The notes beneath the pieces are model-generated. The model was not told the DNA's origin, made no database searches, and worked only from the letters and a program-made list of their open reading frames with translations. Made by a program: the position numbers and the translations under genes. Source: Patescibacteria group bacterium (lineage in GTDB: Bacteria > Patescibacteriota > Microgenomatia > UBA10105 > UBA927). Taken from it: 64,000 bases of DNA. Below are positions 3,248-36,997 of this stretch, piece by piece. Position 1 is the stretch's first letter. The number at the start of each line of letters is the position of its first letter. The stretch covers positions 3,715 to 67,714 of the forward strand of contig JBBTWJ010000005.1 in NCBI GenBank assembly GCA_038062895.1, given 5' to 3'.

Positions 3248-4006
3248 TCATTGTTTTGGGAATATTCGCCGCCATGTATGTCGAATATTCATGCGAAGCC
3301 GCATAAAAGGAGTGATATGACCGCCTTCCAAGGGAATTCGAATCTCGAGATAAAATCGCTGAAGATGGTGGAGGAGGCACAGAAATAGTTCATCTTTCCC
3401 TTTTGTTTTTCCGCGACAAATGTGATGATGTGCGCCTATGGCAACCGTCTGAATCGGCACGGTAAGTGTAATGTTTGTCATGTCATCCCGGTCCAGAGCG
3501 CCATCTTCTTTATCCTTCGCTTCCACCTGCATCGCAGCATAACGCGCTTCCAGCTTATCCTCGCTGTACTGGGTGTATCGCATAGCGATCAACTTGTCCC
3601 AGAGATCCAAATACTGCTTCTCGATCCCGTACCCGCGGAGTGTCTCCCGATGAGCATTGGGAATTTCTTCCCGAACCAGAGAAAAAAACTCTCCCATTTC
3701 TTCAACGGTCCGAAGATCTTTTGCATCAAGCGTGAGCATGATAAGCGTGATAGTCGCAACTACAAGTTCATTAAATACCCTATCTTGTTCGACTTTTTCC
3801 AGGCTTTCAAACCCCAACAGTTTTCTGTATGTATTGTCTTGATAGATCCGAAATGCAAAGCTGCTTGCGGCCTGATCAAAAGAAGCTGCGAGAATCTTTG
3901 CCGTTTTTGCAGGTGGCAACGGCCGGTTGGACCCTCGAATTTTCATTCTTTTCATTTCTTCATCTAAATCCATAGGTGTTATCTTTTTTTTCGGTTTTCC
4001 CGCCAT
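3248..4006 (-). CDS. Hypothetical protein
   Basis: 252-aa ORF. Its stop abuts the start of the kinase-like gene and there is a palindromic element in its upstream region. No recognisable domain. Confidence 0.5.
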   Translation of the reverse strand: MAGKPKKKITPMDLDEEMKRMKIRGSNRPLPPAKTAKILAASFDQAASSFAFRIYQDNTYRKLLGFESLEKVEQDRVFNELVVATITLIMLTLDAKDLRTVEEMGEFFSLVREEIPNAHRETLRGYGIEKQYLDLWDKLIAMRYTQYSEDKLEARYAAMQVEAKDKEDGALDRDDMTNITLTVPIQTVAIGAHHHICRGKTKGKDELFLCLLHHLQRFYLEIRIPLEGGHITPFMRLRMNIRHTWRRIFPKQ

Positions 4007-4073
4007 ATGTTGTGAACAGTAATATCAAATATTAGCATATAACTACTTCCCCAACCTCATTTTTTCAGTAAAT

Positions 4074-4120
4074 ACTTGTACGTTATACGTTGCGACCGCA
4101 ACTTGCAACATACATGTCTC
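4074..4120. repeat. 38-bp near-perfect palindrome, copy 1 (upstream of hypothetical gene 3248..4006)
   Basis: cgttatacgttgcgaccgcaacttgcaacatacatg, with inverted arms TGTATGTTGCAAGT/ACTTGCAACATACA around a GCGACCGC core. Confidence 0.8.
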
Positions 4121-4136
4121 GATAAAAAAATCTTCT

Positions 4137-4952
4137 CTAGCTGGTTGCTTTTCGTAAATTCCGTACCGCTCGCCGAGCATTCATCGCCGGCCAATCGGCT
4201 GACAATAATTCTTTAGGCAAACACGGGTCAGACAAAAGCGCTTCGATATATCGTTGTCGAACCTTCCTCTCCCTCTGTGTCACATTCGCCTCTTTTGCCT
4301 CTGTATGTTGTAAGTGGCGACCGCTACTTGCAACATACATGTCTGTCAGTTGCGTCGCTTCTTCAATAATTTCTCGGTACGCTTCCTCAAGAGCATCGAG
4401 GTTCCAAATTTTTCTAACCAACAGCGCCTGATCCCCTGCAAGAATAGCTGATACTTCAAGCACAAACGCTGTGTCTCCCAAATCCTGGCTTTCTAAATAT
4501 TCCCGTAGGTCAATACTCACATCGTGAGGCGTAATCCAAACCGACTCTTGAAGCATCCCCAACCCGAGTTGCCGTAACTTATCCCGCAAGAGTTCTCTTG
4601 TACTTTTATCAATTTCGACAATATCAAAAATCACCAAGCGCCACCGTTTGTCCCACGGCATATTGGCAAGACGCAATAAGGGAAAAACTCTGGTCATCCT
4701 CTCTTTTCCTTCAGACGTCAAACGAAGATATATCTCGTCTCCCTTGATCACTTTTTCGATATCACCCGTCTTAAGTTGTCGTCCGACCACGCGGGAAAAG
4801 TTATGGCGACGATATCGTGTCGGTACCCACCCATAGAGGCTATGACAGCCGCGAGCCATCACCCCAAATGGATCCTTCACTTCCTCAAATACATCCAGAG
4901 CGCCAGCAATCCCTAACAACAGCACGTCGCCTGGTCTCAAAAGTTTTTTCAT
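4137..4952 (-). CDS. PaaX-family transcriptional regulator
   Basis: 271 aa. The pattern ...WDKRWRLVIFDI...LRQLGLGMLQESVWITP and the C-terminal ELLSADWP..NARR match the PaaX middle and C-terminal regions. Confidence 0.7.
   Translation of the reverse strand: MKKLLRPGDVLLLGIAGALDVFEEVKDPFGVMARGCHSLYGWVPTRYRRHNFSRVVGRQLKTGDIEKVIKGDEIYLRLTSEGKERMTRVFPLLRLANMPWDKRWRLVIFDIVEIDKSTRELLRDKLRQLGLGMLQESVWITPHDVSIDLREYLESQDLGDTAFVLEVSAILAGDQALLVRKIWNLDALEEAYREIIEEATQLTDMYVASSGRHLQHTEAKEANVTQRERKVRQRYIEALLSDPCLPKELLSADWPAMNARRAVRNLRKATS
4300..4348. repeat. 38-bp palindrome, copy 2 (inside PaaX-like CDS, translated as DMYVASSGRHLQHT)
   Basis: tgtatgttgtaagtggcgaccgctacttgcaacataca. Confidence 0.8.
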
Positions 4953-8865: not shown

Positions 8866-9774
8866 TTATTTAACTGTGAATGAGTATTCATCCGACCAGA
8901 TATTTTTTCCGCTAATGAAGGCAAGCGCACGGAAATAATATACGCCGGGATCCGTAATGCTCGCATTTCCGATGAACCGGAGCGGGACGGCGATGCTACC
9001 ACTGGTGAAATCCTGCGTGAGGATCGCATACGGCGTCTGAGGGAGATCGACTGTTGCCTCGAGCTTTCCGGGTTTGGATGTTTTTCCTCCGGCGATAGCC
9101 GTAAATCCAATAGTGGCCGCCGGACCGTATATATCCCACGTAAACGCTGCGTTTTCTCCCAAGGTGACGACGGTTGGAAAATTCGATACTTTTATATCGT
9201 GCTTTAGTTTTGATGTTACGGCAAAATTCCGCTCGCTGCTCCAGTAATGCTTTTCTCCGATGCGGGCATACCCCCGGTAAAAGTATGTACCCGCGGTACT
9301 CATGGGCATACTTCCTACAAACCGCAGCGGCACACCATATGTCCCATCCATAAAATCCTGAAGCGCACGGGTATACTGTGTCTGTTCGGGAGAGGCTTGG
9401 GTCACGAGTACTCCCGGATCGCTTGTCGTGCCATAATACACGGTCGTCGTGCGGATGGTCGTTGGTGGAGCATCCACGTGCCAGGTAAATGATGCGATGT
9501 CCCCTTCAATGATATCTCCCGGTCCATCAATCACGGTAACCAGAGGCATCTGTATAGATGGTGTAGGGGATGAAAATAGTGGACTGGGTGTCGGAGATTG
9601 CGTCGTCTTTTCGGTGGAAATATTGAGCGCATCAAAGTGTGTTTGATCGGAAACAGCTGTACTTCCAAGCACCTTGGGAGCATCCGGTGGTGATGCTGGA
9701 CGGGCATACTTCCATCCGACGATCCCCACGGAAACAATCACCATACCGGAAAACAAAACAAAGAGGCGGTTCAT
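8866..9774 (-). CDS. Membrane-anchored/secreted protein with two tandem ~100-aa repeat domains
   Basis: N-terminal TM, a Pro/Ser/Thr linker, then a duplicated module (..FTW.....VPLRF.G..........YFYR..A.I.GK..WS.E..F.V). Confidence 0.6.
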   Translation of the reverse strand: MNRLFVLFSGMVIVSVGIVGWKYARPASPPDAPKVLGSTAVSDQTHFDALNISTEKTTQSPTPSPLFSSPTPSIQMPLVTVIDGPGDIIEGDIASFTWHVDAPPTTIRTTTVYYGTTSDPGVLVTQASPEQTQYTRALQDFMDGTYGVPLRFVGSMPMSTAGTYFYRGYARIGEKHYWSSERNFAVTSKLKHDIKVSNFPTVVTLGENAAFTWDIYGPAATIGFTAIAGGKTSKPGKLEATVDLPQTPYAILTQDFTSGSIAVPLRFIGNASITDPGVYYFRALAFISGKNIWSDEYSFTVK

Positions 9775-10136
9775 GTCTTGGGTTGTGTCTGCCTGCCTTT
9801 AATTTTTTCGAGCGAATACATGATCCGGTCATGGAGATTAATATTTTTCACTCTGGCAAACCGGAGGATGGCAACGAGGATATCTCCTAATTCCTGCTGG
9901 TATGTTTCGTCGCGCTGGGCCGCAAGATTGGTCTTTTTTCGTCCGTGTTCTGCGAGGTATGCCCGGGCCATCTCCCCGATTTCCTCGACAAGTGTCAGGA
10001 TGAGGATCGATCCAAACTCTTTGGAGTCGCGCGATCCCTTATCCACATCGCTTAAAATGTTGAAGTATTCCCGGAAGGGCGATTTTTGGTACGTGGGTTT
10101 ATGCGGCGTGATCATTTCTAGGAGAAAGTATACCAC
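9771..10136 (-). CDS. MazG-like nucleotide pyrophosphohydrolase
   Basis: All-alpha NTP-PPase signature (FREYFNILSDVDKGSRDSKEFGSILILTLVEEIGEMARAY). The start could be the Met at 10115. Confidence 0.7.
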   Translation of the reverse strand: MVYFLLEMITPHKPTYQKSPFREYFNILSDVDKGSRDSKEFGSILILTLVEEIGEMARAYLAEHGRKKTNLAAQRDETYQQELGDILVAILRFARVKNINLHDRIMYSLEKIKGRQTQPKT

Positions 10137-10689
10137 TATTACGTAATCGTATTACCTTCTCCACCATCCGAAGAAACTCTGGCCGGGCATTATAATCTGC
10201 CGCATCCTCAAGCCGGATCCAGGCCAAATCGTTTGATTCCTGACTGACCGTCAGCGGTTCCTGTGCGTTGGCTGTAAACAAAAAACGCACATCGTAATGG
10301 GTGTGCTCGGGGCTTGTACCATGGACCGGAATCGTGTGGACATCGATATCAAATATGGTATTCCCCAAAATCGAATACCGGATATCTTCAAGTCCCGACT
10401 CTTCCCGCGCCTCCCTCATAGCCGTTTCCGATACGATCGGGTGATCGTCGCTGTGTCCGCCAAACTGAAGCCACATGCTCATCTTTTTGTGATGCGTGAG
10501 GAGTGTATATGCATAGTCACGGTCAACGACAAACGCGGAACCGGTGACATGCCCGGGCAACACAGAGTGACCAAAACAATCCGGGTGGGTAAGAACAAAG
10601 TCTTTGACTTTTTGTAACGATTCGTTTTCCTGGTTATCGTAAGACACAAACGATGCGAGAAGATCGAGGAGGGATTGTCTCGGATCCAT
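10099..10689 (-). CDS. NUDIX hydrolase
   Basis: Nudix box GGHSDDHPIVSETAMREAREESGL. Start moved to the internal Met MDPRQS at 10689, which leaves a short divergent intergenic region with hflX. Confidence 0.8.
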   Translation of the reverse strand: MDPRQSLLDLLASFVSYDNQENESLQKVKDFVLTHPDCFGHSVLPGHVTGSAFVVDRDYAYTLLTHHKKMSMWLQFGGHSDDHPIVSETAMREAREESGLEDIRYSILGNTIFDIDVHTIPVHGTSPEHTHYDVRFLFTANAQEPLTVSQESNDLAWIRLEDAADYNARPEFLRMVEKVIRLRNSGILSPRNDHAA

Positions 10690-10725
10690 AGAGAGAGTAT
10701 ATCCTAATAGACTATAATCAGTCCT

Positions 10726-11847
10726 ATGCGAGAAACAGCTCATCCTATTTCCATGCTTTTTGTGTGTCTGGCTGACGCCAAGCTTGCCCAGTCGGAGATA
10801 GAAAAAGATATTACCGAACTTTGGAATCTCGCCTCCGCATTGGGGGGAGCAACAGTCGTCGACATCATCCTTCAAAAAGGAGTGCCGCAACGGCCGCTCT
10901 ACATCGGTCCCGGAAAAGCGCAGGAGGTGGCGAGCTACATTAAAAACCATTCAGTCGATGTCATCGTTGTGGGTGGCATGCTCACCCCGAACCAAAAATT
11001 TAATCTGACGAAAATGTACTGGGACACGAATCCCACCATAGAAGTGTGGGACCGGATGGATCTCATCCTCTCAATTTTTTCCCGCCACGCACGCACCACG
11101 GAGGCCAAACTCCAGATCGAAATGGCGCGTATGCGCCATATGGGACCGAGTATATTCGGCATGGGCATGATCCTCTCGCGCCAAGCCGGAGGCATCGGGA
11201 CACGAGGGATAGGAGAAACCAATACCGAACTCATGAAACGGCACTGGAAGCACGAAATGAAACGCGTGACGGATGAGCTTGGTAAGCTGCGGGGTGTCCG
11301 GGAAAGACAAATCGAACACCGGAGAAACGCCGGATTATCGACCGTTTCCCTGGTGGGATACACCAACGCGGGCAAGACGTCTCTCTTTAACGCCCTTACT
11401 CACAAAAAAAACCTCGTAGAAAACGTGTTATTTGCGACCCTTGATAGCGCTGTTGGAGAAATTTATATTCAGGAATTAGGCAAATCCGTTGTCATATCCG
11501 ATACCATCGGATTTATTAAAGATCTTCCGCCGGAACTTATCGAGGCGTTCACATCGACGCTTCTTGAATCCATAAGCGCTGATGTGGTCCTTCATATCAT
11601 CGATGCATCCGATCCTGACATATTTGGAAAAATCGATGTAGTTGAGGATATCCTCCATCAGCTTGAGATTCCCGAGGAAAAAGTTGTGCTGGTGTTTAAT
11701 AAAATTGACGCAGTCCCCAATCTCGATCGCGAAAAAATCATGACACGGACCGTCCCCTACCCCCACGTATTTCTCTCAGCCGCCACCCGGGATGGGATAG
11801 ACGCGCTTCTGGCGCTTCTTCTTCCGAGATTAACGAAGGAGGGTTAG
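10726..11847 (+). CDS. hflX: GTPase HflX
   Basis: HflX N-domain, then G-domain motifs GYTNAGKTSLFNAL, DTIGF and NKID. Confidence 0.9.
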   Translation: MRETAHPISMLFVCLADAKLAQSEIEKDITELWNLASALGGATVVDIILQKGVPQRPLYIGPGKAQEVASYIKNHSVDVIVVGGMLTPNQKFNLTKMYWDTNPTIEVWDRMDLILSIFSRHARTTEAKLQIEMARMRHMGPSIFGMGMILSRQAGGIGTRGIGETNTELMKRHWKHEMKRVTDELGKLRGVRERQIEHRRNAGLSTVSLVGYTNAGKTSLFNALTHKKNLVENVLFATLDSAVGEIYIQELGKSVVISDTIGFIKDLPPELIEAFTSTLLESISADVVLHIIDASDPDIFGKIDVVEDILHQLEIPEEKVVLVFNKIDAVPNLDREKIMTRTVPYPHVFLSAATRDGIDALLALLLPRLTKEG

Positions 11848-11852
11848 AGCTT

Positions 11853-12608
11853 CTAGCGCAGATAGAGCATCAACAAACTTACGGCGCTCAGGATGGTCCA
11901 AAAAATAGCGGGGAGGGCGCCAATCATTGCCATTTTTTTATTAAGACGGAATAGGAGTTGTGAATTTTTGATAAACGATCCATAAAAAAGAATGGGCAAC
12001 AGAAAAAGAAGGTTAAATGATATGTGACCCGGCGGTTCAAATAAACTATAGAGAAGTGTGCCGACCAGTCCCACCGCGTACCATCCCAAAAAGTTCCGGA
12101 TGGGAATACCAAAATACGCACTTCCCTTTTCCCATGTCCAGTGTTTTTTAATATTCACGGCGACGGGGTCCAGAATTAAATCCAGAGACACAAGTATCAG
12201 CGGTGTGCCGAATATCACGGCATAATACGGCAAGCCAAACGCAGTAACGATAAGTATCGCGAGGCAAAAAGAAAGATATTTAAGTATCACCCACGCGAGA
12301 GCAATTTCCAACGGATACACGCCCAAGAATAGTATACGGGAAGAAAAAAACCAGTGGTTAGTATTGTATTTGTATTTGGCCCCGAATATCCCGACCGGCG
12401 TTTTGAGACTCACGAGTTCCGCAATAGTGCTGACGATATACGTTATGAGGAGTAGGTAGAGGATTCCGGGTCCAAATAGGTAGGTTCCATGGATAATAAC
12501 GGCGACTATTGCCAGTAGCGCAAACGAGACGAACGATCCGGAAAACTGGAGGACGAGGATGGGCAAAAGCGAGATGATGACAATAATGATGGCGTTTGCG
12601 TCCAACAT
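11853..12608 (-). CDS. Polytopic membrane protein (hypothetical)
   Basis: 251 aa with 7-8 predicted TM helices. No confident family assignment. Confidence 0.55.
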   Translation of the reverse strand: MLDANAIIIVIISLLPILVLQFSGSFVSFALLAIVAVIIHGTYLFGPGILYLLLITYIVSTIAELVSLKTPVGIFGAKYKYNTNHWFFSSRILFLGVYPLEIALAWVILKYLSFCLAILIVTAFGLPYYAVIFGTPLILVSLDLILDPVAVNIKKHWTWEKGSAYFGIPIRNFLGWYAVGLVGTLLYSLFEPPGHISFNLLFLLPILFYGSFIKNSQLLFRLNKKMAMIGALPAIFWTILSAVSLLMLYLR

Positions 12609-12765
12609 GACAAAACGTATGATACCAGATTCGGGAGTCTTGTCTTATGCCGTGGGGCGTTCACCCTCCGCGTTTTTTGCTCTGAAATTCAAAGAAATTT
12701 GAGGTCAAATATATTTGAGCTCCCTGTTCCAAGTTTTGCTCTGACCAATGCTTTGAAATCAGTTA

Positions 12766-13413
12766 TCAAGGTTTTTCAGTACCCTGTTTGAGCCGAACAA
12801 GCAAGACAGAGATTGAACGAAATTTCGCTTCTAACCACTTCAATGGTTTAATGTTTAATATGTGTTTAAATAATTTAGAAAATATTGAAAATCTATATTC
12901 ATTCAAGTTAGATTTTATATTTTGAATCACTAAAATATCTACCAACAACATTTTCTTCACTGCATTTGCATTCTTTATTACCGTTTTTTTATTCTCTTGA
13001 GCATCACCGTTACCGTTCCTTATGTTGTTAAGTAATTCGTTATCTACTTCCAAGATTCTATTAAGCAGAATTCTAATATTTCTATAAGCATCATCGTTAT
13101 CTATTGGTCTTTGGTATAAAAAGTCTTCAATTGCTCTTGTTTTATAGCTTGCATAAGTAATTTTATTAGATTTGAGATACTCATCTTTTTTCTCAATAAG
13201 CTCATTAGCTAACCATGTATCAAACTCTAAATCACCAAGAAGATTATTAATCATTCTAATTTTTTCATTTAGATTGATGCTATTTCTTAAACGACTCTCG
13301 ATGAATAGAAATACGAGAAAAGTAGCAATGAAACCACCAATAATATTGGCAATAAACTGTCCATTTAACAAATCCCAAATCAGATGAGGAATTTTGGTGA
13401 GATTAAGATACAT
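12766..13413 (-). CDS. Hypothetical protein, AT-rich (likely horizontally acquired)
   Basis: 215-aa ORF in a ~30% GC stretch with Asn/Lys/Ile-rich composition. Its start abuts the 3' end of tRNA-Asn. Confidence 0.45.
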   Translation of the reverse strand: MYLNLTKIPHLIWDLLNGQFIANIIGGFIATFLVFLFIESRLRNSINLNEKIRMINNLLGDLEFDTWLANELIEKKDEYLKSNKITYASYKTRAIEDFLYQRPIDNDDAYRNIRILLNRILEVDNELLNNIRNGNGDAQENKKTVIKNANAVKKMLLVDILVIQNIKSNLNEYRFSIFSKLFKHILNIKPLKWLEAKFRSISVLLVRLKQGTEKP

Positions 13414-13416
13414 TCA

Positions 13417-13489
13417 GCTCCCCCGACAGGACTCGAACCTGTAACCTGCCGATTAACAGTCGGACGCTCTACCGTTGAGCTACAGGGGA
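13417..13489 (-). tRNA. tRNA-Asn (GTT)
   Basis: The reverse complement folds as a cloverleaf: TCCCCTG-TA-GCTCAACGGTAGAGC-...CTGTTAA...-ACAGGTTCGAGTCCTGT-CGGGGGA, with anticodon GTT. Confidence 0.9.
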
Positions 13490-13516
13490 ATGATATTTCT
13501 TCCCCTGTCTACTCTA

Positions 13517-13558
13517 CCAACAGGAAGCCGTCCACCGACTGGCGGACTACAGGGGAAT
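13517..13558. repeat. Direct repeat DR1 (hairpin + copy of tRNA-Asn 5' end)
   Basis: caggaagccgtccaccgactggcggactacaggggaat. It ends with ctacagggga, identical to the 5' end of tRNA-Asn, and overlaps the GIY-YIG stop. Confidence 0.7.
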
Positions 13559-13795
13559 TAGTTTTTTAATGAACTGTCTACCTTGATAACTTTTTAATTG
13601 TTTTTCTCTTATCAGAGCACTCGTTTTGTCTGCACAATCCTCGCGATATATTAATTCCCACATTCCTTTTGCTTTTGCAGTAAAGTGGTTGCCACGTTTT
13701 TGATTGTGTTCAAAGATTCTTCTTTTTAGATTATTTGTTTGACCAATATAAATTTTCCCAGCCTCCTGATTATAAAGTGCATAAATAGTCCACAT
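13547..13795 (-). CDS. GIY-YIG nuclease family protein (small, UPF0213-like)
   Basis: 82 aa: YALYNQEAGKIYIGQTNNLKRRIFEHN, a GIY-YIG motif. Confidence 0.85.
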   Translation of the reverse strand: MWTIYALYNQEAGKIYIGQTNNLKRRIFEHNQKRGNHFTAKAKGMWELIYREDCADKTSALIREKQLKSYQGRQFIKKLIPL

Positions 13796-13803
13796 AGCCT
13801 TAT

Positions 13804-13846
13804 TCTACAGGAAGCCGTCCGCCGACTGGCGGACTACAGGGGAATG
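13804..13846. repeat. Direct repeat DR2
   Basis: tacaggaagccgtccgccgactggcggactacaggggaat, a near-identical copy of DR1 sitting 8 bp upstream of the GIY-YIG start. Confidence 0.7.
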
Positions 13847-13985
13847 TAAAGGAACTATTTATTATACCATGGCTTTTGGAGAATACCACCAATCCATCCC
13901 ATAAATTCACCCATATCACGGGGGTGTGTAATGGTCTACCCACGGAGCAAATTATCCTAATAATTTCTTCTGATATAATCATTTC

Positions 13986-14828
13986 ATGAGAAAAACTCAT
14001 ACAACACCCTATCCAGAATTAGATGTAGTTCTTGAAAGCCATGCAGAAAAAATACAACAAGCGCTTGGCGATAATATTATTGGATTTTACTCGCAGGGCT
14101 CCTTGGCTATTGGAGATTTTGATTTAACTTCAGATGTAGATTTTGTTGTCATTACGAAAGAGGATCTAAAGGAAGATCAGGTTCATGCTGTGCAAAAAGT
14201 GCACACGCAAACATGTTCGCAAGATAGTAGATGGGTGAAGCATCTGGAATATTCATTTTTCCCACTGCAATTATTCAGAACGCATTCGTCTCCCTATACA
14301 GACGGAAGCGCTGATACATCTGAAGAAAGGAAGCTTTGGTACTTTGATAATGGAAGTCCAGTTATTGAAAAATCAGATCATGATAATACCCTCGTGACCC
14401 GATGGACAGTAAGAAAGAAAGGTAAAGCGGTAATGGGACCAGACCCAAAGATATTATTGAGTCCTATTCATCCAGATGATTTGCGAAGAGAGATAAGAGG
14501 AACGCTCATTGGATGGGGATCCGAAGTGGTTAAAAATCCGGATCCATTTAAAAATAGATTTTATCAAGCTTATTTTGTGCTAAATTACTGTCGCGTATTG
14601 CAGGATTTAGAAGAGGGTAGAATCACCTCTAAGCTTGAAGGAGTTAATTGGGCAAAGCAACATGTAGACCCTACATGGATACCGCTTATTGATTATTGCT
14701 GGAAGGAAAGACAAGACCCAGACATTTCTATTGGGCAACCGGCGGATTCGGAAATTTATGATCAAGTTATAGATTTTGTTCAATATGCTATTGATAAAGG
14801 AATGAACTTTCAAATAGGTATAAAATAG
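13986..14828 (+). CDS. Nucleotidyltransferase-domain protein (ANT/AadA-like, with DUF4111-like C-terminal domain)
   Basis: Pol-beta-type NTase motif GSLAIGDFDLTSDVDFVV with an alpha-helical C-terminal domain. Lies in the low-GC region. Confidence 0.65.
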   Translation: MRKTHTTPYPELDVVLESHAEKIQQALGDNIIGFYSQGSLAIGDFDLTSDVDFVVITKEDLKEDQVHAVQKVHTQTCSQDSRWVKHLEYSFFPLQLFRTHSSPYTDGSADTSEERKLWYFDNGSPVIEKSDHDNTLVTRWTVRKKGKAVMGPDPKILLSPIHPDDLRREIRGTLIGWGSEVVKNPDPFKNRFYQAYFVLNYCRVLQDLEEGRITSKLEGVNWAKQHVDPTWIPLIDYCWKERQDPDISIGQPADSEIYDQVIDFVQYAIDKGMNFQIGIK

Positions 14829-14890
14829 GTCCGAACACCGTCGATGGTGCGGAGCCAGTTGGCACTTCATACGCCAAATGATAAATTAGA

Positions 14891-15133
14891 TTGGAGGTGA
14901 AAATTATGGAAGAGACAAAAAAATGCCCAACATGTGATATTCAAATGGAAATGGGGAGAATGTTAAACAATGCTATGGTGTGGACAGGAAGCACGTCATT
15001 TAAGGATAGTAAAGAATTCTATGATACATGTGTAAAGGGGTGTGAGGCACACCCAGCATACGGTGTAGCGGCTTATAGGTGTCCTACGTGTAATATCATT
15101 GAACTTTATACTGTTGAGAATGAAAAAGCATAA
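14891..15133 (+). CDS. Small zinc-ribbon protein (hypothetical)
   Basis: 80 aa with two CPTC motifs (CPTCD...CPTCN). Confidence 0.5.
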   Translation: MEVKIMEETKKCPTCDIQMEMGRMLNNAMVWTGSTSFKDSKEFYDTCVKGCEAHPAYGVAAYRCPTCNIIELYTVENEKA

Positions 15134-15298
15134 ATAGAGCAGTAGTAGGTCCAAACACCGTCCATTGCGCCGAACAAATGCCTTTTGTTTCAAGATTTTT
15201 CCAACGACTCTATACCCAGAGAGGATTCGGGTTCATTAATGCAGTCTATAATTCCTGCTTCTTTTGCATTACTTTTTTTCTAATGAGATAATCAATAC

Positions 15299-16030
15299 AT
15301 GCTAAAGAGCATCATTCGGATTGCAATACTTGCAGCCATCGGCGGAACTATCATTGTTTTGCTTGTAGTGGGGTTTGTACGCACCGATGGATTTACAAAT
15401 TTTAGCAAAATTAAGGACGGTTTATCTTTTAATGAAGCATTTGTTCCAGGGGAAGTCCTTATAACGTTGCACCCGTATATCGATGTGACGGCGCTTGATG
15501 AATATCTCTTCAAATATCCTGAACTTAACAGAGATAGAAAACGAGGCAAAACTCTTTATCTTCCTTCTTTCGGAACATTGAGTTTGAAGGGATATAAACA
15601 GCTGACGCAAAAAGTTATTACGTTAAAGGATGAAGCAAAAAACGATTCTGATCTCCTCGTTGCTCAAGAGAAGCTCCGGAGTATATATGAACTCTTAAAA
15701 AGTAATCCTTTTTTAACCAATTCAAATATCTGGGATACGTTTTATAAAAATACGAAGCCGGAAGAAAGTAATTTTTCGGTTATTCACTATTTTTTCAAGC
15801 CAGGAATATCCCAGGCTGACCGTGATAATTTCTTTCGCTCATATCCCGAACTTGAAATCGTTGATGACAGGCAAGAATCACAAACGTTTACCGTCTTTGT
15901 TCCGAAAGGAAAAGAACAGTATTGGGTGCAACAGTTTTCCAAACAGCCGTTTGTGAAGGTAGCTTGGTTAAACAATATAATAAAATTAAATAAAGCTGGT
16001 AGCGAGATTCATCAGATGCTTGAAGAATAA
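15299..16030 (+). CDS. Hypothetical membrane-anchored protein
   Basis: 243 aa with a single N-terminal TM (IAILAAIGGTIIVLLVVGFV). Low GC. Confidence 0.5.
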   Translation: MLKSIIRIAILAAIGGTIIVLLVVGFVRTDGFTNFSKIKDGLSFNEAFVPGEVLITLHPYIDVTALDEYLFKYPELNRDRKRGKTLYLPSFGTLSLKGYKQLTQKVITLKDEAKNDSDLLVAQEKLRSIYELLKSNPFLTNSNIWDTFYKNTKPEESNFSVIHYFFKPGISQADRDNFFRSYPELEIVDDRQESQTFTVFVPKGKEQYWVQQFSKQPFVKVAWLNNIIKLNKAGSEIHQMLEE

Positions 16031-16246
16031 AAGGATTCGAAATCCATTCCATTTTTTCAAATAGTAATTTAGACCGTGCTGACATGAAAAATTTCCATTA
16101 AAGAGCTAACCTATATAGTAACTGATATCACTTTAAAACTAATTTTTACAAAGCCATTTTTCTGTCCGTGTGCAATCCCATTGAGGGAGCATAAACATTC
16201 TATCTACAAATTTCTTCAATCTTACTGTATCGAATATAATGACGTC

Positions 16247-16756
16247 ATGAAACAATTCCGGTTCAGTCCCATAAAAAACAAGGCACAATTCTTTGGGGCT
16301 ATAGCGTATATCCATTTCGCCTGCCATAAGCTCTGTAAGCAGACTATGGGGAACTATCTGCCCGTCGCCGGAAATATCGGTGTGTTTTGCCACTTCGATG
16401 ATGAATATACGTATCTCAAAAAGCTCCAATCGGAGCTCGCGGATTTATCTCAAAGTGTATACGGCAAATACTTCAAACTTCACAAGCCCTTCGTTGTCCC
16501 CGAGAAAGGTGATGTTCCGGAGACTACATACAGCTACCTCTATATCCGCAAACCTAACCCAAACAAAGATCAGGTGGGTGATGTAGATTTTTATCTGGAA
16601 CCTGAAAAATACGCAGTGCTCAAACAGGCGCTGTTAAACGGAAAAGTCATCAAAGGGGCACGGATTCTCCCCAACCGCCCCGAGCTGGATTTCATCGAAA
16701 TATACGATCCGGAAGTCGACGCGTGGGGCTATATCGGTAAAAAAATTTGGCAGTAA
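16247..16756 (+). CDS. Hypothetical protein
   Basis: ORF 16181..16756 on the same strand as its neighbours. Start placed at the internal Met MKQFRF. It overlaps an antisense 96-aa ORF that is considered spurious. Confidence 0.45.
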   Translation: MKQFRFSPIKNKAQFFGAIAYIHFACHKLCKQTMGNYLPVAGNIGVFCHFDDEYTYLKKLQSELADLSQSVYGKYFKLHKPFVVPEKGDVPETTYSYLYIRKPNPNKDQVGDVDFYLEPEKYAVLKQALLNGKVIKGARILPNRPELDFIEIYDPEVDAWGYIGKKIWQ

Positions 16757-16780
16757 ATATTCAAAATATTCTCATAGATA

Positions 16781-17380
16781 TTGATGAAGGAAAAATCTAA
16801 CATTATTGCCCTCTTTGGTGCAAGCGGCAGGACCGGTCAGGCGATACATGCTCAGGCACTCACCCGAGGCATAATCGTCAGGCCGTTTAACAAAAAAAAT
16901 CCCTCCCCGCAAGATTTACGCAAGGCCATCAAAGGATCATACAGCGTCATCATTGTATTCGGACCCAGAGCGCCGTATACAGATGTTTTTTGCGCAGAAA
17001 CAACGGAGAAAATTGTCACCGCGATGAAAAAAACAGGCGTTCGTCGCCTCATCTGCCAAACAGGTGCGATGATCGGAGATTATCCCAAAAACCGGTCATT
17101 TTTCTTCGAACTATTCAGTGGGAAATTCCGAAGCAGTAATCCCATCGGGTACAATGATCGGGTACAACAGGAAAAAATCGTCGCATCTTCATCGCTGGAT
17201 TGGACGATCGTCAAGCCACCGCGGCTCACTGACACGACGGATAACACGACGGTTCAGGCAGGAGTCCATGTCAAGGTCGGACTTCTCTCATCCGTTTCCC
17301 GAAAAAGCTTGGCGCGATTTCTCCTTGACGAACTATTAACACCCCATCACATCCGCCAGGCAGTATTTGTGAAAAATTGA
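16781..17380 (+). CDS. NAD(P)H-binding / NmrA-like (atypical SDR) protein
   Basis: N-terminal LFGASGRTGQ (GxxGxxG Rossmann). Confidence 0.8.
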   Translation: MMKEKSNIIALFGASGRTGQAIHAQALTRGIIVRPFNKKNPSPQDLRKAIKGSYSVIIVFGPRAPYTDVFCAETTEKIVTAMKKTGVRRLICQTGAMIGDYPKNRSFFFELFSGKFRSSNPIGYNDRVQQEKIVASSSLDWTIVKPPRLTDTTDNTTVQAGVHVKVGLLSSVSRKSLARFLLDELLTPHHIRQAVFVKN

Positions 17381-17401
17381 GCAGGAGAATATTATACGAC
17401 T

Positions 17402-17764
17402 ATGAATGGATCATTCCTAAAAGATACCTTTGGCTGGGGATTTCTCCTGTGGCTCGTGGGGTACATCCTCGGGATCCTTCTTTTTATGCTCGTGCCGCCT
17501 TCCATGATCGGATGGATCATCATGCCAGTGGGGACAATCATCACGGTATGGATTCTCCGAAAAAAGATCGAGGGGTCAACGTTTTACTATTATCTCCTGG
17601 TCGGGGGTGTATGGACGATGATAGCGATACTGTGCGACTATCTATTCCTCGTAAAGGTATTTAAACCCACCGACGGTTACTACAAGCTGGATGTCTATCT
17701 CTACTATCTGCTCACCTTTCTGCTTCCCCCGTTTATCGGTTGGAAAAAATTAAAATCAAAGTAA
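17402..17764 (+). CDS. Small membrane protein (hypothetical)
   Basis: 120 aa with 3-4 hydrophobic helices. Confidence 0.5.
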   Translation: MNGSFLKDTFGWGFLLWLVGYILGILLFMLVPPSMIGWIIMPVGTIITVWILRKKIEGSTFYYYLLVGGVWTMIAILCDYLFLVKVFKPTDGYYKLDVYLYYLLTFLLPPFIGWKKLKSK

Positions 17765-17832
17765 ACCAAGGGTTAAAAACGGCATAACATTCACAACAAT
17801 GAAATGGAGGCCCCTGTGGTACTATCTAATTT

Positions 17833-18678
17833 ATGAATTGGTTCTTTCTCACGATTATCAGCGCCGTGGCCTACGCAGCTGCCGAAATCATCGGCAAATA
17901 CATATCCGATAAAAAGTCAGAACCTGTCTTCATAGGCATCATTGCGGCCGGATTTACAGCAGCCGTCTCACTGTTGTTTGCCGTATGGGAATCCCCTGCC
18001 ATCCCCACCAACATCTGGGCCATTACCGGTCTTGTGTCCTCCGGTGCCCTCGTCGCCGTGGGCGTCATGACGTATTACGAGGGACTCAAACATTCCGACG
18101 TATCAGAGTTTAGCCTTTTCAGCCGAAGCCGGATGCTCATCATCGTCATCGGCGGACTGGTGTTTTTCCAAGAACGCTTCACGTTTCTTCAGGCGGCCGG
18201 CGGGCTCCTTGTTCTCTGTGGTGTATTTTTTCTTTCCTGGGAAGGAAAAGGTATCCATTTTGGAAAAGGGGCAAAATTTGCATTGGCAACCGCCGTATTA
18301 TTCGGACTCGGTGCCCTCATTGATAAAGCGGTCATCCCTTACTTTACCGCCATGATGTATACGTTTCTGATCTATCTTTTCACGGTGCTATTCATGATTC
18401 CGCTTGTTCTTGTGCGACTGAAAAAAGGCGCGCCACTACCAAAGCGTTCTACGGTTGGAATTCTAAGCATCGTGGGAATACTGTATGGCGCATCCGCCTA
18501 CTGCATCTATGCGGCGTACCTTCAGAGCGGACCAGCGTCGCTTGTCACGCTCGTCAGTCAATTGGAAATACCTATCGCCGTCCTCTGGGGAATCTTTGTC
18601 ATGAAAGAACAAAAAAAGATATTTCCAAAGCTCATGAGCATGGCCCTCCTCATCCTGGGCATTGTGTTATTGAAGTGA
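17833..18678 (+). CDS. EamA/DMT-family transporter
   Basis: 281 aa, 10 TM, with duplicated EamA-like halves. Confidence 0.8.
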   Translation: MNWFFLTIISAVAYAAAEIIGKYISDKKSEPVFIGIIAAGFTAAVSLLFAVWESPAIPTNIWAITGLVSSGALVAVGVMTYYEGLKHSDVSEFSLFSRSRMLIIVIGGLVFFQERFTFLQAAGGLLVLCGVFFLSWEGKGIHFGKGAKFALATAVLFGLGALIDKAVIPYFTAMMYTFLIYLFTVLFMIPLVLVRLKKGAPLPKRSTVGILSIVGILYGASAYCIYAAYLQSGPASLVTLVSQLEIPIAVLWGIFVMKEQKKIFPKLMSMALLILGIVLLK

Positions 18679-19713
18679 TGATTCATCCTTCAATATATAG
18701 TATGTAGCTTTCCCTTTGCCTTTCCTTTTAATATATCCGAGGGAAAGCAGTCTCTTGAAATCTTTAGTTCTCGTCGCTTTGGCTCGGGTGACGAGCGCGG
18801 CATATCTTTTATCCGTGATAAAACCTTGTTCTTTCATGTGCTTTAGAAGTTTCCGGTCATGCTCTTGTAATTCTGTCCGTGGATCAATCCCTGCTTCCGC
18901 TAACAGCTTTTGAACACGGAGAAGTTCATCAATAATTCCCTCGGTAAAGTATTCTAGCCACACGGTGAAATCAATCTTGTTTTTTAACTCATAATAGTCT
19001 CCATACTCTCCCACAGTTTGGAAATATCGAGAGACGTTCTGATTATAATAATTTTCAAAACTAAATAGATTAAAGGTGTTCAGGCCCATTTGCGCTAACA
19101 ATATTTTTGTTGCTAACCGTGTTGTCCGTCCATTACCATCCATAAATGGATGAATGATGACCATCTGTTTATGAAAAATTCCAGCTATAATTAACGGATC
19201 TATATGACCTTTATTTTGATGGATATATTGGACCAACTCTAACATCAACGGTTTCACATCTTGAACATCGGGAGGTAAAAATGCCACTTGATGCGTTTTG
19301 GGGTTGTTGACGACTACTGGTTTCTGCCGAAGGCTACCGGATTCAAACGCCGGCAGTAATCCGCTTGTGACTTGTTTTTGTATATGCAAAATGTACTCAA
19401 AAGACAGCAATGAAAATTGTTTACCCTGCTGCTTCTGTAATGTAATCAATGCTTGATTATAGTTTAAAACTTCCCGTTCGCTATCCCTGATGTGTTCTGG
19501 CTTGGACTTAAGAATCTTTTTCACTTCCGTCAAAGGCAACGGATTGCCCTCGATACTGGTTGAGGCATGCGTCGATAAACTTCGTGCCGACTTTTCAAGA
19601 GCTATCAATACCACAGAGGAGAATCGGCGATTATTGAGCTCTCCAATCAGCGTATTAATCCGTTTAATGTTTGCAAGCAGCTGATTGGTGATAGTGTAAC
19701 GGGGTTGAAACAT
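18667..19713 (-). CDS. fic: Fic family protein (AMPylation/Fido domain) with C-terminal wHTH
   Basis: Fic motif HPFMDGNGRTTR. Confidence 0.9.
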   Translation of the reverse strand: MFQPRYTITNQLLANIKRINTLIGELNNRRFSSVVLIALEKSARSLSTHASTSIEGNPLPLTEVKKILKSKPEHIRDSEREVLNYNQALITLQKQQGKQFSLLSFEYILHIQKQVTSGLLPAFESGSLRQKPVVVNNPKTHQVAFLPPDVQDVKPLMLELVQYIHQNKGHIDPLIIAGIFHKQMVIIHPFMDGNGRTTRLATKILLAQMGLNTFNLFSFENYYNQNVSRYFQTVGEYGDYYELKNKIDFTVWLEYFTEGIIDELLRVQKLLAEAGIDPRTELQEHDRKLLKHMKEQGFITDKRYAALVTRAKATRTKDFKRLLSLGYIKRKGKGKATYYILKDESSLQ

Positions 19714-19715
19714 AG

Positions 19716-19748
19716 TAGTCGAATTATAGTCGAATTATAGTCGATTGG
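19716..19748. repeat. 11-bp tandem repeat (agtcgaattat x ~2.7) in the divergent Fic/SDR promoter region
   Basis: tagtcgaattatagtcgaattatagtcgattgg. Confidence 0.7.
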
Positions 19749-19779
19749 CAAGAGTATATAAACTTGATATGATCAAGGT

Positions 19780-20535
19780 ATGACCAAACAAAATATCGCC
19801 CTTATCACGGGATCTTCAAGCGGCATCGGCGCAGGAATTGCCAAGGTGTTAGCTCGCCACGAATATCTGGTGATAATTACGTATAAGGATCATAAAAAAT
19901 GGGGCGAAGATGTCGTTGCTGCCATCAAAAAAGAGAACGGCAAAGCAGTCCTCCGCGAGCTCGATGTCACGGATGAAGAAAGTGTGAAGGCGTGTTTTGA
20001 TTTCGTCATGAAAGAATACGGCTACCTCAATGTCCTCGTCAATAATGCCGCTGTCGATGGCATAGCTCCCATAGAAACCTGTACGTTTGATAGGTGGAAA
20101 AACATTACGAGAACAAAAATCGATGGAAATTTCCTTTGTACCAAATACGCGCTCCCGCTTCTGAAAATCCCCGGCAAGGCTGACCTGATCGTCATCATGT
20201 CCAGCATGGGCGAGAGACCGGATTCTGATGATGTCCCTTACTGTGTAGGAACAGCGGGGACGATCGCCTTCGTCAAAGCTATGGCAAAGGGTCTGGCAAA
20301 ATACGGCATCAGAACAAACGGCATTGGTCCGGGAGAAACAAAAACACATAACGGATACTGGGCTGAGGCAGGCCTTATGACCGATGACGCGTGGGATAAA
20401 TTCGCAAAAGGCAATCCTCTCGGAAGAGTCACAACGCCTGAAGACGTCGGTGAGACAGCCCTTGCCATCATTGAAAACAAAACAGCTTTCTGGAACGGAA
20501 ACTTCATCTACGTCAACGGCGGTGGCCACCTGTAA
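19780..20535 (+). CDS. SDR family oxidoreductase (FabG-like)
   Basis: TGSSSGIGAGIA, NNAAV and a Y..K catalytic region. Confidence 0.9.
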   Translation: MTKQNIALITGSSSGIGAGIAKVLARHEYLVIITYKDHKKWGEDVVAAIKKENGKAVLRELDVTDEESVKACFDFVMKEYGYLNVLVNNAAVDGIAPIETCTFDRWKNITRTKIDGNFLCTKYALPLLKIPGKADLIVIMSSMGERPDSDDVPYCVGTAGTIAFVKAMAKGLAKYGIRTNGIGPGETKTHNGYWAEAGLMTDDAWDKFAKGNPLGRVTTPEDVGETALAIIENKTAFWNGNFIYVNGGGHL

Positions 20536-26530: not shown

Positions 26531-27394
26531 TCATGAAAACAATAATAATGCGATCCCTACGGTCATGCCGCCAACAGCAGCGAACTTTTTCCATGACAGA
26601 TGATCTCCAAAGAGGAGGGCAACGAGCACCGTATACACGGCGTTGGATGCGGCGTTGATGGTGCCCACGTATCCCAAGTTGGGGGCGGCGATTTCCGCGG
26701 ATAATTTGAAAAAATAGAATCCGGAAACCGATATGCCCAAAAGACCAAGCAGCCCCAATATTTTTGCGTCCATCTTCTGTCTTTTTGTCTGCACTCGCAC
26801 AATATCCACACCCGTCAGGCCAAGGGTGGCGATACAAACCCAAAAAAGCTGCGGAATGGTTCCGATCCCCTGTTGAGCGAAATATTTTCCAGAAAGAGAG
26901 GTCGTCCCAAAACACACCATGGCAACGACTGCGTAGATGACCCATTCATAATTGATTCTATTCATCTTCTTTCCCCGCTGATACGCAACCAGTGCCGCGC
27001 AGACAAGGATGAGACCCGAAAGAGTAAATTTATACCAAGATATTTCGGACCCATAGAGAATGACTGCGGCAAACAAGGTATAGACGGCATAACTTTTTTG
27101 GATGATCAAGCTGTAGCCGGCGTTGGGTGCGCCTTCCATCGATTTGTATCCGGCAATTGTTCCAATGTAATTGAGGACCGCCCGGAAGACAATAAACGAA
27201 ACAAGCAAAACGACCGGATACATCAGGGGCAATTTGTTGATAACGGCAAGAACAAAAAATACGACGGTGGGAAATGCATAGTTTGCGATGGTGTAGATCC
27301 GTTTATCGACCCCAAGCATCTGCAACTTTTTTACCGAAAGGTAAAAAATGATAGAGCATACAAACATGAGAAGGCTTGAAATGATCCAAGACAT
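26531..27394 (-). CDS. DMT-superfamily membrane transporter (EamA-like)
   Basis: About 10 TM helices in two duplicated halves. Confidence 0.6.
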   Translation of the reverse strand: MSWIISSLLMFVCSIIFYLSVKKLQMLGVDKRIYTIANYAFPTVVFFVLAVINKLPLMYPVVLLVSFIVFRAVLNYIGTIAGYKSMEGAPNAGYSLIIQKSYAVYTLFAAVILYGSEISWYKFTLSGLILVCAALVAYQRGKKMNRINYEWVIYAVVAMVCFGTTSLSGKYFAQQGIGTIPQLFWVCIATLGLTGVDIVRVQTKRQKMDAKILGLLGLLGISVSGFYFFKLSAEIAAPNLGYVGTINAASNAVYTVLVALLFGDHLSWKKFAAVGGMTVGIALLLFS

Positions 27395-27398
27395 AGTC

Positions 27399-27650
27399 CT
27401 AATTATATACAACAGACCGGTGTCCCGCAGTGATAACAGTTATGATCCCATCTGTTTTATCTACCGTATAAATAATTCTATACACCCCAACGCGCAAGGA
27501 AAATCTACCGGTTAACTCACGAGTAAGCGGTTTGCCGATAAACGGGTCTTCTGAAATTTCTCCTAATGCTTCCAATACGGCTTTCTGGTGGTCAATCTTC
27601 AATCTTTTTAACCCTTTTCCTGCTTTAGGTGAAATGCGAAGTTTATACAT
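27399..27650 (-). CDS. Type II toxin, RelE/ParE family
   Basis: 83 aa (...RFSLRVGVYRIIYTVDKTDGIITVITAGHR), overlapping the upstream antitoxin gene by 8 nt. Confidence 0.85.
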   Translation of the reverse strand: MYKLRISPKAGKGLKRLKIDHQKAVLEALGEISEDPFIGKPLTRELTGRFSLRVGVYRIIYTVDKTDGIITVITAGHRSVVYN

Positions 27651-27918
27651 GAAGCTTCAGATCCTTTTTCAGCTGTGGAAAGGTGATATATCTGCCTTTT
27701 TTAATATCTTCTTCTCCTTCTCTAATGGCCTTCATGAGCTTTGGGTCACTTAAAATTTCTAACGTTTCTTTCCATGATTCAAATTCAGCAACAGACATAA
27801 GCACTGCCGCGGGGTACCCGTTGACGGTAATAATATACTCATCGAGACGCAACCTCGCGTTATCCACAAGCGTGGTTAATTCTTCTCGTACTTTTGTGAT
27901 AGGAAGTGTTTGGATCAT
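27643..27918 (-). CDS. Type II antitoxin, Phd/YefM family
   Basis: 91 aa (MIQTLPITKVREELTTLVDNA..ITVNGYPAAVLMSVAEFESWKETLEIL). Confidence 0.85.
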   Translation of the reverse strand: MIQTLPITKVREELTTLVDNARLRLDEYIITVNGYPAAVLMSVAEFESWKETLEILSDPKLMKAIREGEEDIKKGRYITFPQLKKDLKLHV

Positions 27919-27949
27919 ATCATGATATTACATAATTCTGTACAGAGTG

Positions 27950-31660: not shown

Positions 31661-32037
31661 AATGGAAAAAAATTAAGCTGATGCTCTGGTATTCCGAGAG
31701 AAGTTCCATAGCGTTTCACTAAGCCATATTGCTCTTTGCTTTTTCGCTCTATATAGAAAATCTTATCACGAAAAATAATATAGTGATTGGTCTCATTTTT
31801 GAAATCTGCATACCATGAACCACCATGATTCCGGTCAAGGGACGCACTAATTGCTACGCTAATTTCTTTTGCCTTTCCATCCGGGACTTCCACTGTGTGA
31901 AGGGTCCACTGCGTAAGCCAAGGTGTTTTATGATACCTCGTCACCGCCTCAACATTCGTTGAGGTAATTTTTACCATCTTGAGAATATCGAGATTCTCAA
32001 GAGATTCCTCGATGATCACCCCATGAAAATATACCAT
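31657..32037 (-). CDS. Hypothetical protein
   Basis: 126-aa ORF in a low-GC stretch with no recognisable domain. Confidence 0.5.
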   Translation of the reverse strand: MVYFHGVIIEESLENLDILKMVKITSTNVEAVTRYHKTPWLTQWTLHTVEVPDGKAKEISVAISASLDRNHGGSWYADFKNETNHYIIFRDKIFYIERKSKEQYGLVKRYGTSLGIPEHQLNFFPL

Positions 32038-32058
32038 ATGAATTTAGGGATTTTATTA

Positions 32059-32526: not shown

Positions 32527-32639
32527 ATCTTCGTTTTATACTCGCATCTCGCCCCCCTATTAGCTTCAGATTATTTGAAAAGAATTTGAACCCCTAATCC
32601 CACTTTGTCAAAAGCATGATAGTGCATAGAATTATTGTG

Positions 32640-36242: not shown

Positions 36243-36518
36243 GGATTGATTTACGTTATAATTCAATTGCTTAGGATGAAGCACGGCAGTCTGGAAATAG
36301 GTTATAACTTTGTAAATGGTTCTCCGCATTGACGTTTCTTTGCGATCCTGAGAAAAGTCGAAGGAGAGCTTAGAAACGACAATGCCCTCCTAAATTTGCT
36401 CTTCGAGCCGCGCTACGAATAGTAAGTAAGGCGAGAAGTAAGAATGGAAGGGCAAGTTTGAATCGGAATTTAGCCTGAGCCCGACAGGAAGCGGGAATAG
36501 AACCCAACCTTAAATCAT

Positions 36519-36953: not shown

Positions 36954-36997
36954 TATTGCGATGTTTTAAAATAGGTTCTGATTAGTCATGGTCCGCA

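Follow-up and report, generated by a model that had tools for sequence, protein, structure and literature searches.

In a 64,000-nt stretch of Patescibacteria DNA (GenBank assembly GCA_038062895.1, contig JBBTWJ010000005.1, positions 3,715 to 67,714 of the forward strand; hereafter the window), a gene for an 82-aa GIY-YIG nuclease lies between two interrupted copies of the 5′ end of the neighbouring tRNA-Asn gene. The gene probably belongs to an element widespread in Patescibacteria, a selfish, site-specific cassette of tRNA genes with a Slx1/UPF0213-type nuclease. The architecture of the loci, their site specificity and conservation are shown, as are the occurrence of empty sites and the purifying selection under which the intact catalytic core has been kept. 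The unit consists of a 16-nt GC palindrome, a short tRNA-like relic, a -10 box and the open reading frame (ORF), and is located after tRNA nt 8, 10 or 13, with the first tRNA nt repeated on both sides. The window locus comprises the following features:

13417-13489 (-): functional tRNA-Asn(GTT), host gene of the putative element (ARAGORN; Rfam tRNA, 69.1 bits)
13490-13519 (-): 30-nt remnant between stub 1 and the tRNA (sequence; fold; ORF ends of other loci)
13520-13558 (-): repeat copy 1 (stub 1), AT plus tRNA nt 1-10 (13558-13547), palindrome and anticodon-stem relic
13546-13531 (-): palindrome of copy 1, TCCGCCAGTCGGTGGA, with one G-U (sequence)
13530-13520 (-): anticodon-stem relic of copy 1, CGGCTTCCTGT (sequence)
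13547-13795 (-): GIY-YIG nuclease ORF of the UPF0213/Slx1-like clade, 82 aa, 249 nt (Pfam PF01541, E = 7e-17)
13796-13806 (-): spacer from repeat copy 2 to the start codon, holding part of the -10-like TAGAAT (13807-13802)
13807-13845 (-): repeat copy 2 (stub 2), dead stub of the tRNA 5′ end, with the AT leader at 13845-13844 and tRNA nt 1-10 at 13843-13834
13833-13818 (-): palindrome of copy 2, TCCGCCAGTCGGCGGA (sequence)
13817-13807 (-): relic of copy 2, CGGCTTCCTGT (sequence)
13869-13861 (-): extended -10, TGGTATAAT, presumed native tRNA-Asn promoter P1 (sequence)

The two copies of the direct repeat are 39 nt long, identical at 38 of 39 positions and spaced by 287 nt, and their 28-nt core occurred in only these two places in the 64 kb (0 expected). 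The 12-mer CTACAGGGGAAT, which corresponds to two leader nt followed by tRNA nt 1-10, has just three occurrences, one at the 5′ end of the tRNA and one in each repeat (0.18 expected). An earlier note on this DNA had described a tRNA-Asn gene next to ~40-bp direct repeats that bracket an 82-aa GIY-YIG gene and supply its last codons. All of this was confirmed, the final four codons (ATT CCC CTG TAG, stop included) lying in repeat copy 1; the proposed origin of the repeat from tRNA 5′ end and leader also held, its length being 10 tRNA nt plus two leader nt rather than 9. On the coding strand the order is the -10 TGGTATAAT, stub 2, TAGAAT, 6 nt, ATG, ORF, stub 1, the 30-nt remnant and the real tRNA, and six of six contigs read from the window's own species had the same layout. 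The identical protein is annotated in a metagenome-assembled genome of Patescibacteria, the window matches a 224-kb contig from Hainich groundwater, and homologues of the flanking genes indicate Gottesmanbacteria-like Microgenomates. The relic CGGCTTCCTGT resembles the 5′ strand of the anticodon stem of tRNA-Asn, followed by CTGT of the loop; it differs from the local tRNA allele (GTCCGACTGT) and matches tRNA-Asn alleles of other genomes of the Candidate Phyla Radiation (CPR).

Within the 30-nt remnant, ACAGGGGAA (13508-13500) pairs with stub 1 to form a 9-bp acceptor-like stem (fold -29.3 kcal/mol, z = -3.8), and AAATATCAT (13498-13490), directly before the tRNA, resembles the usual 3′ end of such ORFs, AAATATATT. 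The remnant is thus most readily read as the scar of a second cassette whose ORF was deleted. The window would then hold two tandem insertions, the promoter-proximal one intact and the tRNA-proximal one reduced to stub, palindrome and scar, and the gene would seem to be bracketed by direct repeats because two cassettes inserted in tandem, the second being left without its ORF. A third palindrome-like site at window position 54231 lies within a coding gene and was dismissed as a chance occurrence.

Relatives of the nuclease were collected by a protein-pattern scan of one genome per species, which gave at least 482; the best 80 were kept and, together with the window and the locus L007 of the closest relative found, formed a set of 82 loci. 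A tRNA 5′ end was located directly downstream on the same strand in 82 of 82 loci (81 Asn, 1 Lys), and since the scan used no tRNA information, this association is not a selection artefact. The ORF end falls inside the tRNA in 57 of the 82 loci. An identical register was observed in 47 of them, the stop codon being U8-A9-G10 of the tRNA (TAG), and in tRNAs with G9 the ORF extends to the TAA of the anticodon loop. Eighteen of the 80 contigs terminate no more than 200 nt beyond the ORF, and ends close upstream of it are almost absent; contig breaks at the tRNA fit repeats or strain-variable DNA beyond it. Many metagenome-assembled genomes with this Patescibacteria-type locus (L008, L011, L012, L015-L017, L021-L024 and others) are titled 'uncultured Gammaproteobacteria', 'Pseudomonadales' or 'Bdellovibrionales', labels that may be wrong.

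A 16-nt GC palindrome of the TCCGCCAGCTGGCGGA type was present in all 82 loci, 27-85 nt before the ATG (27-63 nt in most), and matched the consensus exactly in 50. The earlier note had suggested a small mobile GIY-YIG cassette and proposed a search for further GIY-YIG genes with the same hairpin and tRNA fragment, and the 82 positive loci bear it out. In the palindrome 93.8% of cells were paired and four of the seven pairs had changes on both sides, values that no shuffle reached. A stub could be scored in 80 of the 82 loci, and in these the ORF lies between stub and functional tRNA. Over its first 8 nt the stub was identical to the local tRNA in 67/80 loci, in comparison to 9.5% by random pairing (21 different octamers). 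The stretch copied from the 5′ end of the local tRNA is interrupted by the palindrome after nt 8, 10 or 13-14, and the sequence beyond the palindrome resumes at varying tRNA positions; the hairpin takes at least three registers relative to the stub and recurs in introns and in pseudo-tRNAs further downstream. As in the window, the relic after the palindrome is non-local in L010 and others and matches foreign tRNA alleles, the segments being too short for phylogeny. Away from the tRNA locus almost no palindrome copies occurred in 361 kb of loci, and the 64-kb window contains no other non-coding copy. No terminal inverted repeats were found, the palindrome being internal, and the duplicated tRNA segment is not of fixed length, in contrast to a DNA transposon. 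The palindrome could serve as an operator, as a structural substrate for a Slx1-like nuclease, or be a mobile unit of its own.

Metagenomes were scanned with the 5′ 41-mer of the window's tRNA, yielding 18 contigs, 14 of them with at least 190 nt upstream. Twelve of these 14 same-allele contigs were empty, with the promoter directly before the tRNA and neither a GIY-YIG gene nor a palindrome, and the remaining two (L176 and L178) carried distant GIY-YIG genes (44% and 28% identity, respectively) with the same stub logic and different palindromes. The gene in L176 (reverse complement, about 4003-4233) has a TGA at the invariant Trp46 and is probably a decaying copy. The empty contig L167 aligns with the occupied contig L013 through the promoter up to tRNA nt 1, from where L013 continues with stub, palindrome, ORF and tRNA; the end of the alignment at tRNA nt 1 identifies the stub as the original 5′ end of the tRNA gene, still in place at its native promoter. 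In L170 (4500-4700), the tRNA-Asn gene with its promoter is inverted relative to the syntenic L013 and L167, between ~30-bp inverted repeats (..TTCTTTATTTTCAAAC..).

Multiple and degenerate copies were frequent. Double stubs like those of the window were observed in L009, L012, L015, L022, L034, L035 and L070, a palindrome-bearing pseudo-tRNA-Asn downstream of the real tRNA in L007 and L018, palindrome-preceded tRNA 3′ fragments at the corresponding place in L054 and L074, and nested palindromes in L061, L074 and L083. Homologues of the L178 protein, which form a more distant clade, were located at tRNA-Leu(GAG) (L180), tRNA-Ser(GCT) (L181), tRNA-Gln(CTG) (L182) and tRNA-Gly(TCC) (L183). At the tRNA-Leu locus, a stub made up of nt 1-23 plus CCTGCCTGCCGGCAGGCAGG is present three times, and the ORF stops within the D-loop of a stub; the tRNA-Gln locus has a stub and a double hairpin. 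The arrangement is mirrored at the tRNA-Gly locus, where two ORFs lie in tandem downstream of the tRNA and TCCGCCATTGGCGGA with the 3′ part of the tRNA comes after each of them. At the tRNA-Ser locus the ORF is near the tRNA and no obvious palindrome stub was found.

The -10-like TAGAAT of the window ends 6 nt before the ATG. A -10-like hexamer ending 3-16 nt before the ATG was present in 24 of 81 loci versus 7% of control ATGs, and its distance was exactly 6 nt in 17 loci, the window counted, which suggests a promoter P2 giving a leaderless ORF transcript. The palindrome ends 10-11 nt before this hexamer in 14 loci; at ~-38 to -23 of the ORF promoter, it could be an operator. The presumed native promoter P1 lies 17 nt upstream of tRNA nt 1 of the stub (13843) in a block conserved in L007, and a P1-like -10 was found upstream of the stub in 64 of 79 loci. 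As the tRNA appears to be co-transcribed with the overlapping ORF, an RNase P cut at tRNA nt 1 would remove the stop codon. A general promoter and terminator scan gave counts at chance level and was not used.

The nuclease matched PF01541 with 61.9 bits (cut-off 22.6), the domain spanning residues 1-70 of 82. Residues Y5, Y16, G18, R26, H30 and E64 were invariant among 120 homologues, and ratios of nonsynonymous to synonymous substitution rates (dN/dS) of 0.03-0.16 indicated purifying selection. The AlphaFold2 (AF2) model (predicted local distance difference test score, pLDDT, 95.5) has the topology E-E-H-H-E-H-H, with a three-stranded sheet flanked by helices. In profile searches against the PDB, modest E-values were obtained for 1ywl (3e-6), 1zg2 (3e-5) and I-TevI (2e-3), and Foldseek ranked 1zg2, Slx1 (7cq2, 6seh, 4xm5) and 1ywl above I-TevI and UvrC. 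At these modest E-values, sequence profile and predicted fold point to the UPF0213/Slx1 nuclease domain as the nearest kin. A working enzyme is predicted from the invariant catalytic residues, the dN/dS values and the fold match. The family comprises 1,417 clusters at 50% identity (E below 1e-10), and annotation pipelines name the gene merely 'GIY-YIG nuclease family protein'. In the predicted 4,564-aa protein P0228, 24 stretches match the GIY-YIG profile, and a tandem array translated as a single frame may underlie it.

Taken as a selfish element, the cassette would act as follows. The native tRNA 5′ end is left as a dead stub behind its own promoter, and the ORF extends into the functional tRNA copy, usually stopping at U8-A9-G10. 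The break predicted to be made by the nuclease would let the cassette copy itself into unoccupied tRNA genes, in a homing-type or transposon-like manner, with the palindrome as the putative cognate site of the nuclease, either an operator or a hairpin or cruciform substrate. Processing by RNase P, in cutting off the ORF stop, would keep nuclease expression low. A more far-reaching proposal, which we regard as possible but doubtful, is a two-part mobile system new to bacteria. In it, a minimal, Slx1-like, structure-specific GIY-YIG nuclease and its own clade-specific palindrome would invade CPR tRNA genes (Asn, Lys, Leu, Gln, Gly and Ser), each invasion duplicating the end of the tRNA gene; the nuclease gene would take its final codons and stop from the tRNA (U8-A9-G10), tRNA processing would destroy the nuclease mRNA, and rapid turnover of tRNA alleles would be driven by the invasions.

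A number of results weigh against a selfish element. The AF2 model consists of the catalytic fold alone (82 aa, Pfam domain 1-70), with no DNA-binding domain. To our knowledge every characterised GIY-YIG homing endonuclease has a separate one, so that site recognition by the bare domain is unexplained. The duplicated tRNA segment comes in several lengths (8, 10, 13, 14 nt or more), whereas a target-site duplication would be of fixed length, and the functional tRNA copy lies beside the nuclease without obvious protection. Occupied and empty alleles were found between species only, with no within-species polymorphism among the six contigs of the window's species, and no two unrelated genomes were seen to share a near-identical element. 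Viral contigs contained only partial relatives of the N-terminal motif and no full-length close copy; a phage origin, which had been considered, is therefore unsupported. Similarity ranks roughly track taxonomy, from Microgenomates to Saccharimonadia and then Parcubacteria, and the nuclease genes of the window and L007 share 81% nt identity at a genome identity of 82%. Divergence that follows taxonomy and keeps step with the genomes under purifying selection fits long vertical inheritance as well as it fits a selfish element. In view of this pattern and the missing DNA-binding domain, we call it likely that the cassette works like a homing element and take its membership in that class as unproven.

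An ordinary host protein, for example a structure-specific repair nuclease of the Slx1 kind, could instead have become joined to the transcription unit of tRNA-Asn in an ancestor early in the CPR and have been passed on vertically from then on. Stubs and palindromes would in that case be side products, regulatory or neutral, of a local duplication long ago. Such a domesticated gene would be expected to show the strong purifying selection, the invariant catalytic residues, the taxonomic ranks and the in-step divergence of the window and L007 elements, and it agrees with the absence of viral copies from the contigs scanned and with UPF0213 proteins being common single-domain proteins of bacteria. 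We nevertheless consider it unlikely, since 12 of 14 same-allele contigs, a syntenic empty site among them, are without the gene, and since tandem and decayed copies, a nonsense mutant, nested palindromes and palindrome-bearing pseudo-tRNAs indicate repeated insertion and decay. The same architecture was moreover counted at five other tRNA species, and the relics match foreign tRNA alleles. Less probable still, although it could coexist with a selfish cassette, is that stub and hairpin form a transcribed tRNA-mimic 5′ leader whose structure controls how the ORF-tRNA transcript is processed or translated, or how stable it is; the repeats would exist because the leader must resemble tRNA. Compensatory changes that keep the hairpin (with a sense-strand G-U in window copy 1), the tracking of the local acceptor sequence by the stub in 67/80 loci, the stable acceptor-like stem formed by copy 1 (z = -3.8) and the promoter upstream of the stub in most loci are in line with this explanation. 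It is countered by the -10 box between hairpin and ATG in about 30% of loci, which would give an ORF transcript without the stub, and by the several registers of the hairpin and its presence in pseudo-tRNAs and introns. A-C mismatches, which are G-U on the other strand, were about as common as G-U in the palindrome, and a palindromic protein-binding site would give the same symmetric changes; as a discriminator between an RNA and a DNA hairpin, the G-U and A-C counts were discarded for comprising too few cases.

The earlier note had placed the nuclease gene in a low-GC accessory island at 12620-16780 and had offered remnant att sites of an integrated element as a second explanation of the repeats. 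A classical genomic island, integrated at tRNA-Asn by a site-specific recombinase and leaving the repeats as attL and attR, would account for the low GC, the accessory-looking genes beside the tRNA and the gene content that varies between relatives. We regard it as very improbable and as already contradicted. The repeats derive from the 5′ and not the 3′ end of the tRNA and bracket 287 bp only, with just the 249-nt ORF enclosed; 12000-17500 contains no second copy of the tRNA 3′ end; and the integrase that the note had proposed to look for did not appear, the ORFs of 11000-18500 being free of integrase or recombinase domains. The same stub and palindrome were found at 82 loci whatever the neighbours, and in the nearest relative the module occupies the same position. 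Of the proposed island, the low GC and the difference in gene content between relatives on both sides stand; a single inserted island does not, the nuclease module being resident.

Among known systems, the closest in setting is SegB of phage T4, a free-standing GIY-YIG homing endonuclease in a tRNA gene cluster (PMC2330249). Like SegB, the present gene stands alone among tRNA genes, outside an intron, and is inherited with the adjacent tRNA region. SegB targets tRNA gene DNA, as the present nuclease is predicted to do. SegB is encoded by a phage, has the normal size and includes a DNA-binding part, whereas the present protein consists of the 82-aa catalytic domain only. The present element is in addition cellular and CPR-wide, overlaps the tRNA, leaves a 5′-end stub and carries a conserved palindrome. 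Duplication of a gene terminus is known from mitochondrial mORFs, as in Allomyces atp6 and Glomus atp6, atp9, cox2 and nad3 (PMC3630166). The likeness includes an endonuclease ORF in frame with the host gene, a replacement gene end, a displaced and partly divergent duplicate and foreign-looking fragments. The mORFs occupy 3′ ends of protein-coding genes in fungal mitochondria and encode full-size LAGLIDADG or GIY-YIG enzymes, whereas the host gene here is a bacterial tRNA, its 5′ end is duplicated, and the duplicate is 8-22 nt long and interrupted by a palindrome.

The presence of group I introns at this tRNA is reminiscent of collaborative homing (PMC3984707). The introns lack an ORF, match Rfam RF00028 with 59-104 bits and were observed about 20-300 nt after the end of the GIY-YIG ORF in L019, L059, L065, L069, L076, L084 and L087; they split tRNA-Asn in the anticodon loop after CTGT, and the GIY-YIG ORF is not inside them. 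A degenerate palindrome of the TCCGCC..GGCGGA type lies within the Rfam-called intron of L059, and one of this type occurs in L082 in intron-like sequence that interrupts the tRNA and was not called by Rfam. The relic of window-type stubs ends at the same CTGT position as the intron site. This shared boundary was downgraded, as CTGT holds only for window-type stubs and the boundary is the start of a -10 box, so that the coincidence may be trivial. Neither the window nor most other loci contain an intron; in 12000-17500, Rfam at E ≤ 1 gave the tRNA only, and thus no known RNA family, ribozyme or intron around the ORF.

By sequence profile as well as by structure, Slx1 and the UPF0213 proteins EF2693 and BH0048 matched best. 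The substrates cut by Slx1 are branched and stem-loop DNAs, and a palindrome or cruciform would suit such an enzyme as partner; Slx1 differs in requiring Slx4 and in carrying a RING domain, and the bacterial UPF0213 proteins have no assigned function. In the searchable literature we found no report linking Slx1 or UPF0213 to tRNA genes or a cognate palindrome, and no description of the present arrangement or of this probably selfish family resident in tRNA genes. The REP/RAYT and IS200/IS605 systems likewise combine a small nuclease gene with short GC-rich palindromes that multiply locally. Their enzymes are HUH tyrosine transposases, not GIY-YIG nucleases, and their hairpins occur genome-wide, whereas the present palindrome is confined to the tRNA locus.

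If the proposed reading is true, an essential tRNA gene of many CPR bacteria harbours a class of selfish elements that had been overlooked, built from a cognate palindrome and the smallest known kind of GIY-YIG nuclease. It poses the question of how a bare 80-aa catalytic domain gains site specificity, for which DNA structure, the palindrome or a co-transcribed RNA are candidates. The loci are also a clear bacterial case of a protein gene overlapping a tRNA gene, a rare overlap, with conserved U8-A9-G10 as stop codon. The element would explain stubs and pseudo-tRNAs in CPR genomes and probably also contig breaks and strain-variable DNA beside tRNA-Asn.

The low-GC genes on either side of the module are separate, variable cargo at a recombination hotspot. 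GC content is 0.28-0.42 over ~12650-16250 as compared with ~0.48 elsewhere; the drop described in the earlier note is thus real and does not reach out to 16780. Its accounts of an AT-rich gene abutting the tRNA 3′ end, of an AadA-like nucleotidyltransferase and a zinc-ribbon protein, and of a motif shared after two genes proved correct. The neighbouring features are:

12766-13413 (-): AT-rich hypothetical gene, 215 aa, 28-30% GC, variable cargo; starts 3 nt after the tRNA 3′ end
13986-14828 (+): AadA_C/NTP_transf_2 nucleotidyltransferase (Pfam); neighbour, not part of the cassette
14891-15133 (+): DUF6487 zinc-ribbon protein (Pfam); neighbour, not part of the cassette
15299-16030 (+): 243-aa ORF; low-GC neighbour, not part of the cassette
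16181-16756 (+): 191-aa ORF; low-GC neighbour, not part of the cassette
14826-14853 and 15146-15173 (+): two copies of the motif TAGGTCCRAACACCGTC, each after a gene (sequence)

The accessory genes at 13986-16756 are divergent from the cassette. Searches of the island proteins against defence and phage libraries gave weak matches to the GIY-YIG motif and one weak nucleotidyltransferase match, none of which assigned the 215-, 243- and 191-aa proteins. The closest relative found is represented by L007 and by L092, which overlap at 98%; L092 is ~82% identical to window 8879-12494. The gene order of this relative is GIY-YIG, tRNA-Asn, pseudo-tRNA, DUF6487, AbiEi, AbiEii, Caroten_synth and HflX. 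The window has the 215-aa ORF where the relative has DUF6487 and AbiEi/AbiEii, and its own DUF6487 gene is inverted on the other side. As the module is at the same chromosomal place with different cargo in the relative, what is found here is a resident module within a gene-flux hotspot, not a single island bounded by the repeats. EamA was rejected as a second synteny anchor, the two EamA proteins being unrelated (21% identity). L088-L091 (78-80% identity) were rejected as empty sites; synteny on the HflX side is kept, but tRNA-Asn is not located there.

The tRNA-Asn genes of the window (13417-13489) and L007 (543-615) are just 79% identical although the genomes share ~82%, and they differ in the D, anticodon and T stems, which suggests allele replacement. 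In the window, TAGGTCCRAACACCGTC occurs only at 14826 and 15146, and elsewhere it was found only in contigs of the window's species; a related AAGTCCGAACATCGTCG follows a gene in L007 (about 1078-1095). Further low-GC kilobases (0.37-0.41) were observed at window positions 19001-20000, 27001-28000, 32001-33000 and 36001-37000, and the GC skew of the 32-33 kb segment was strongly negative (-0.27).

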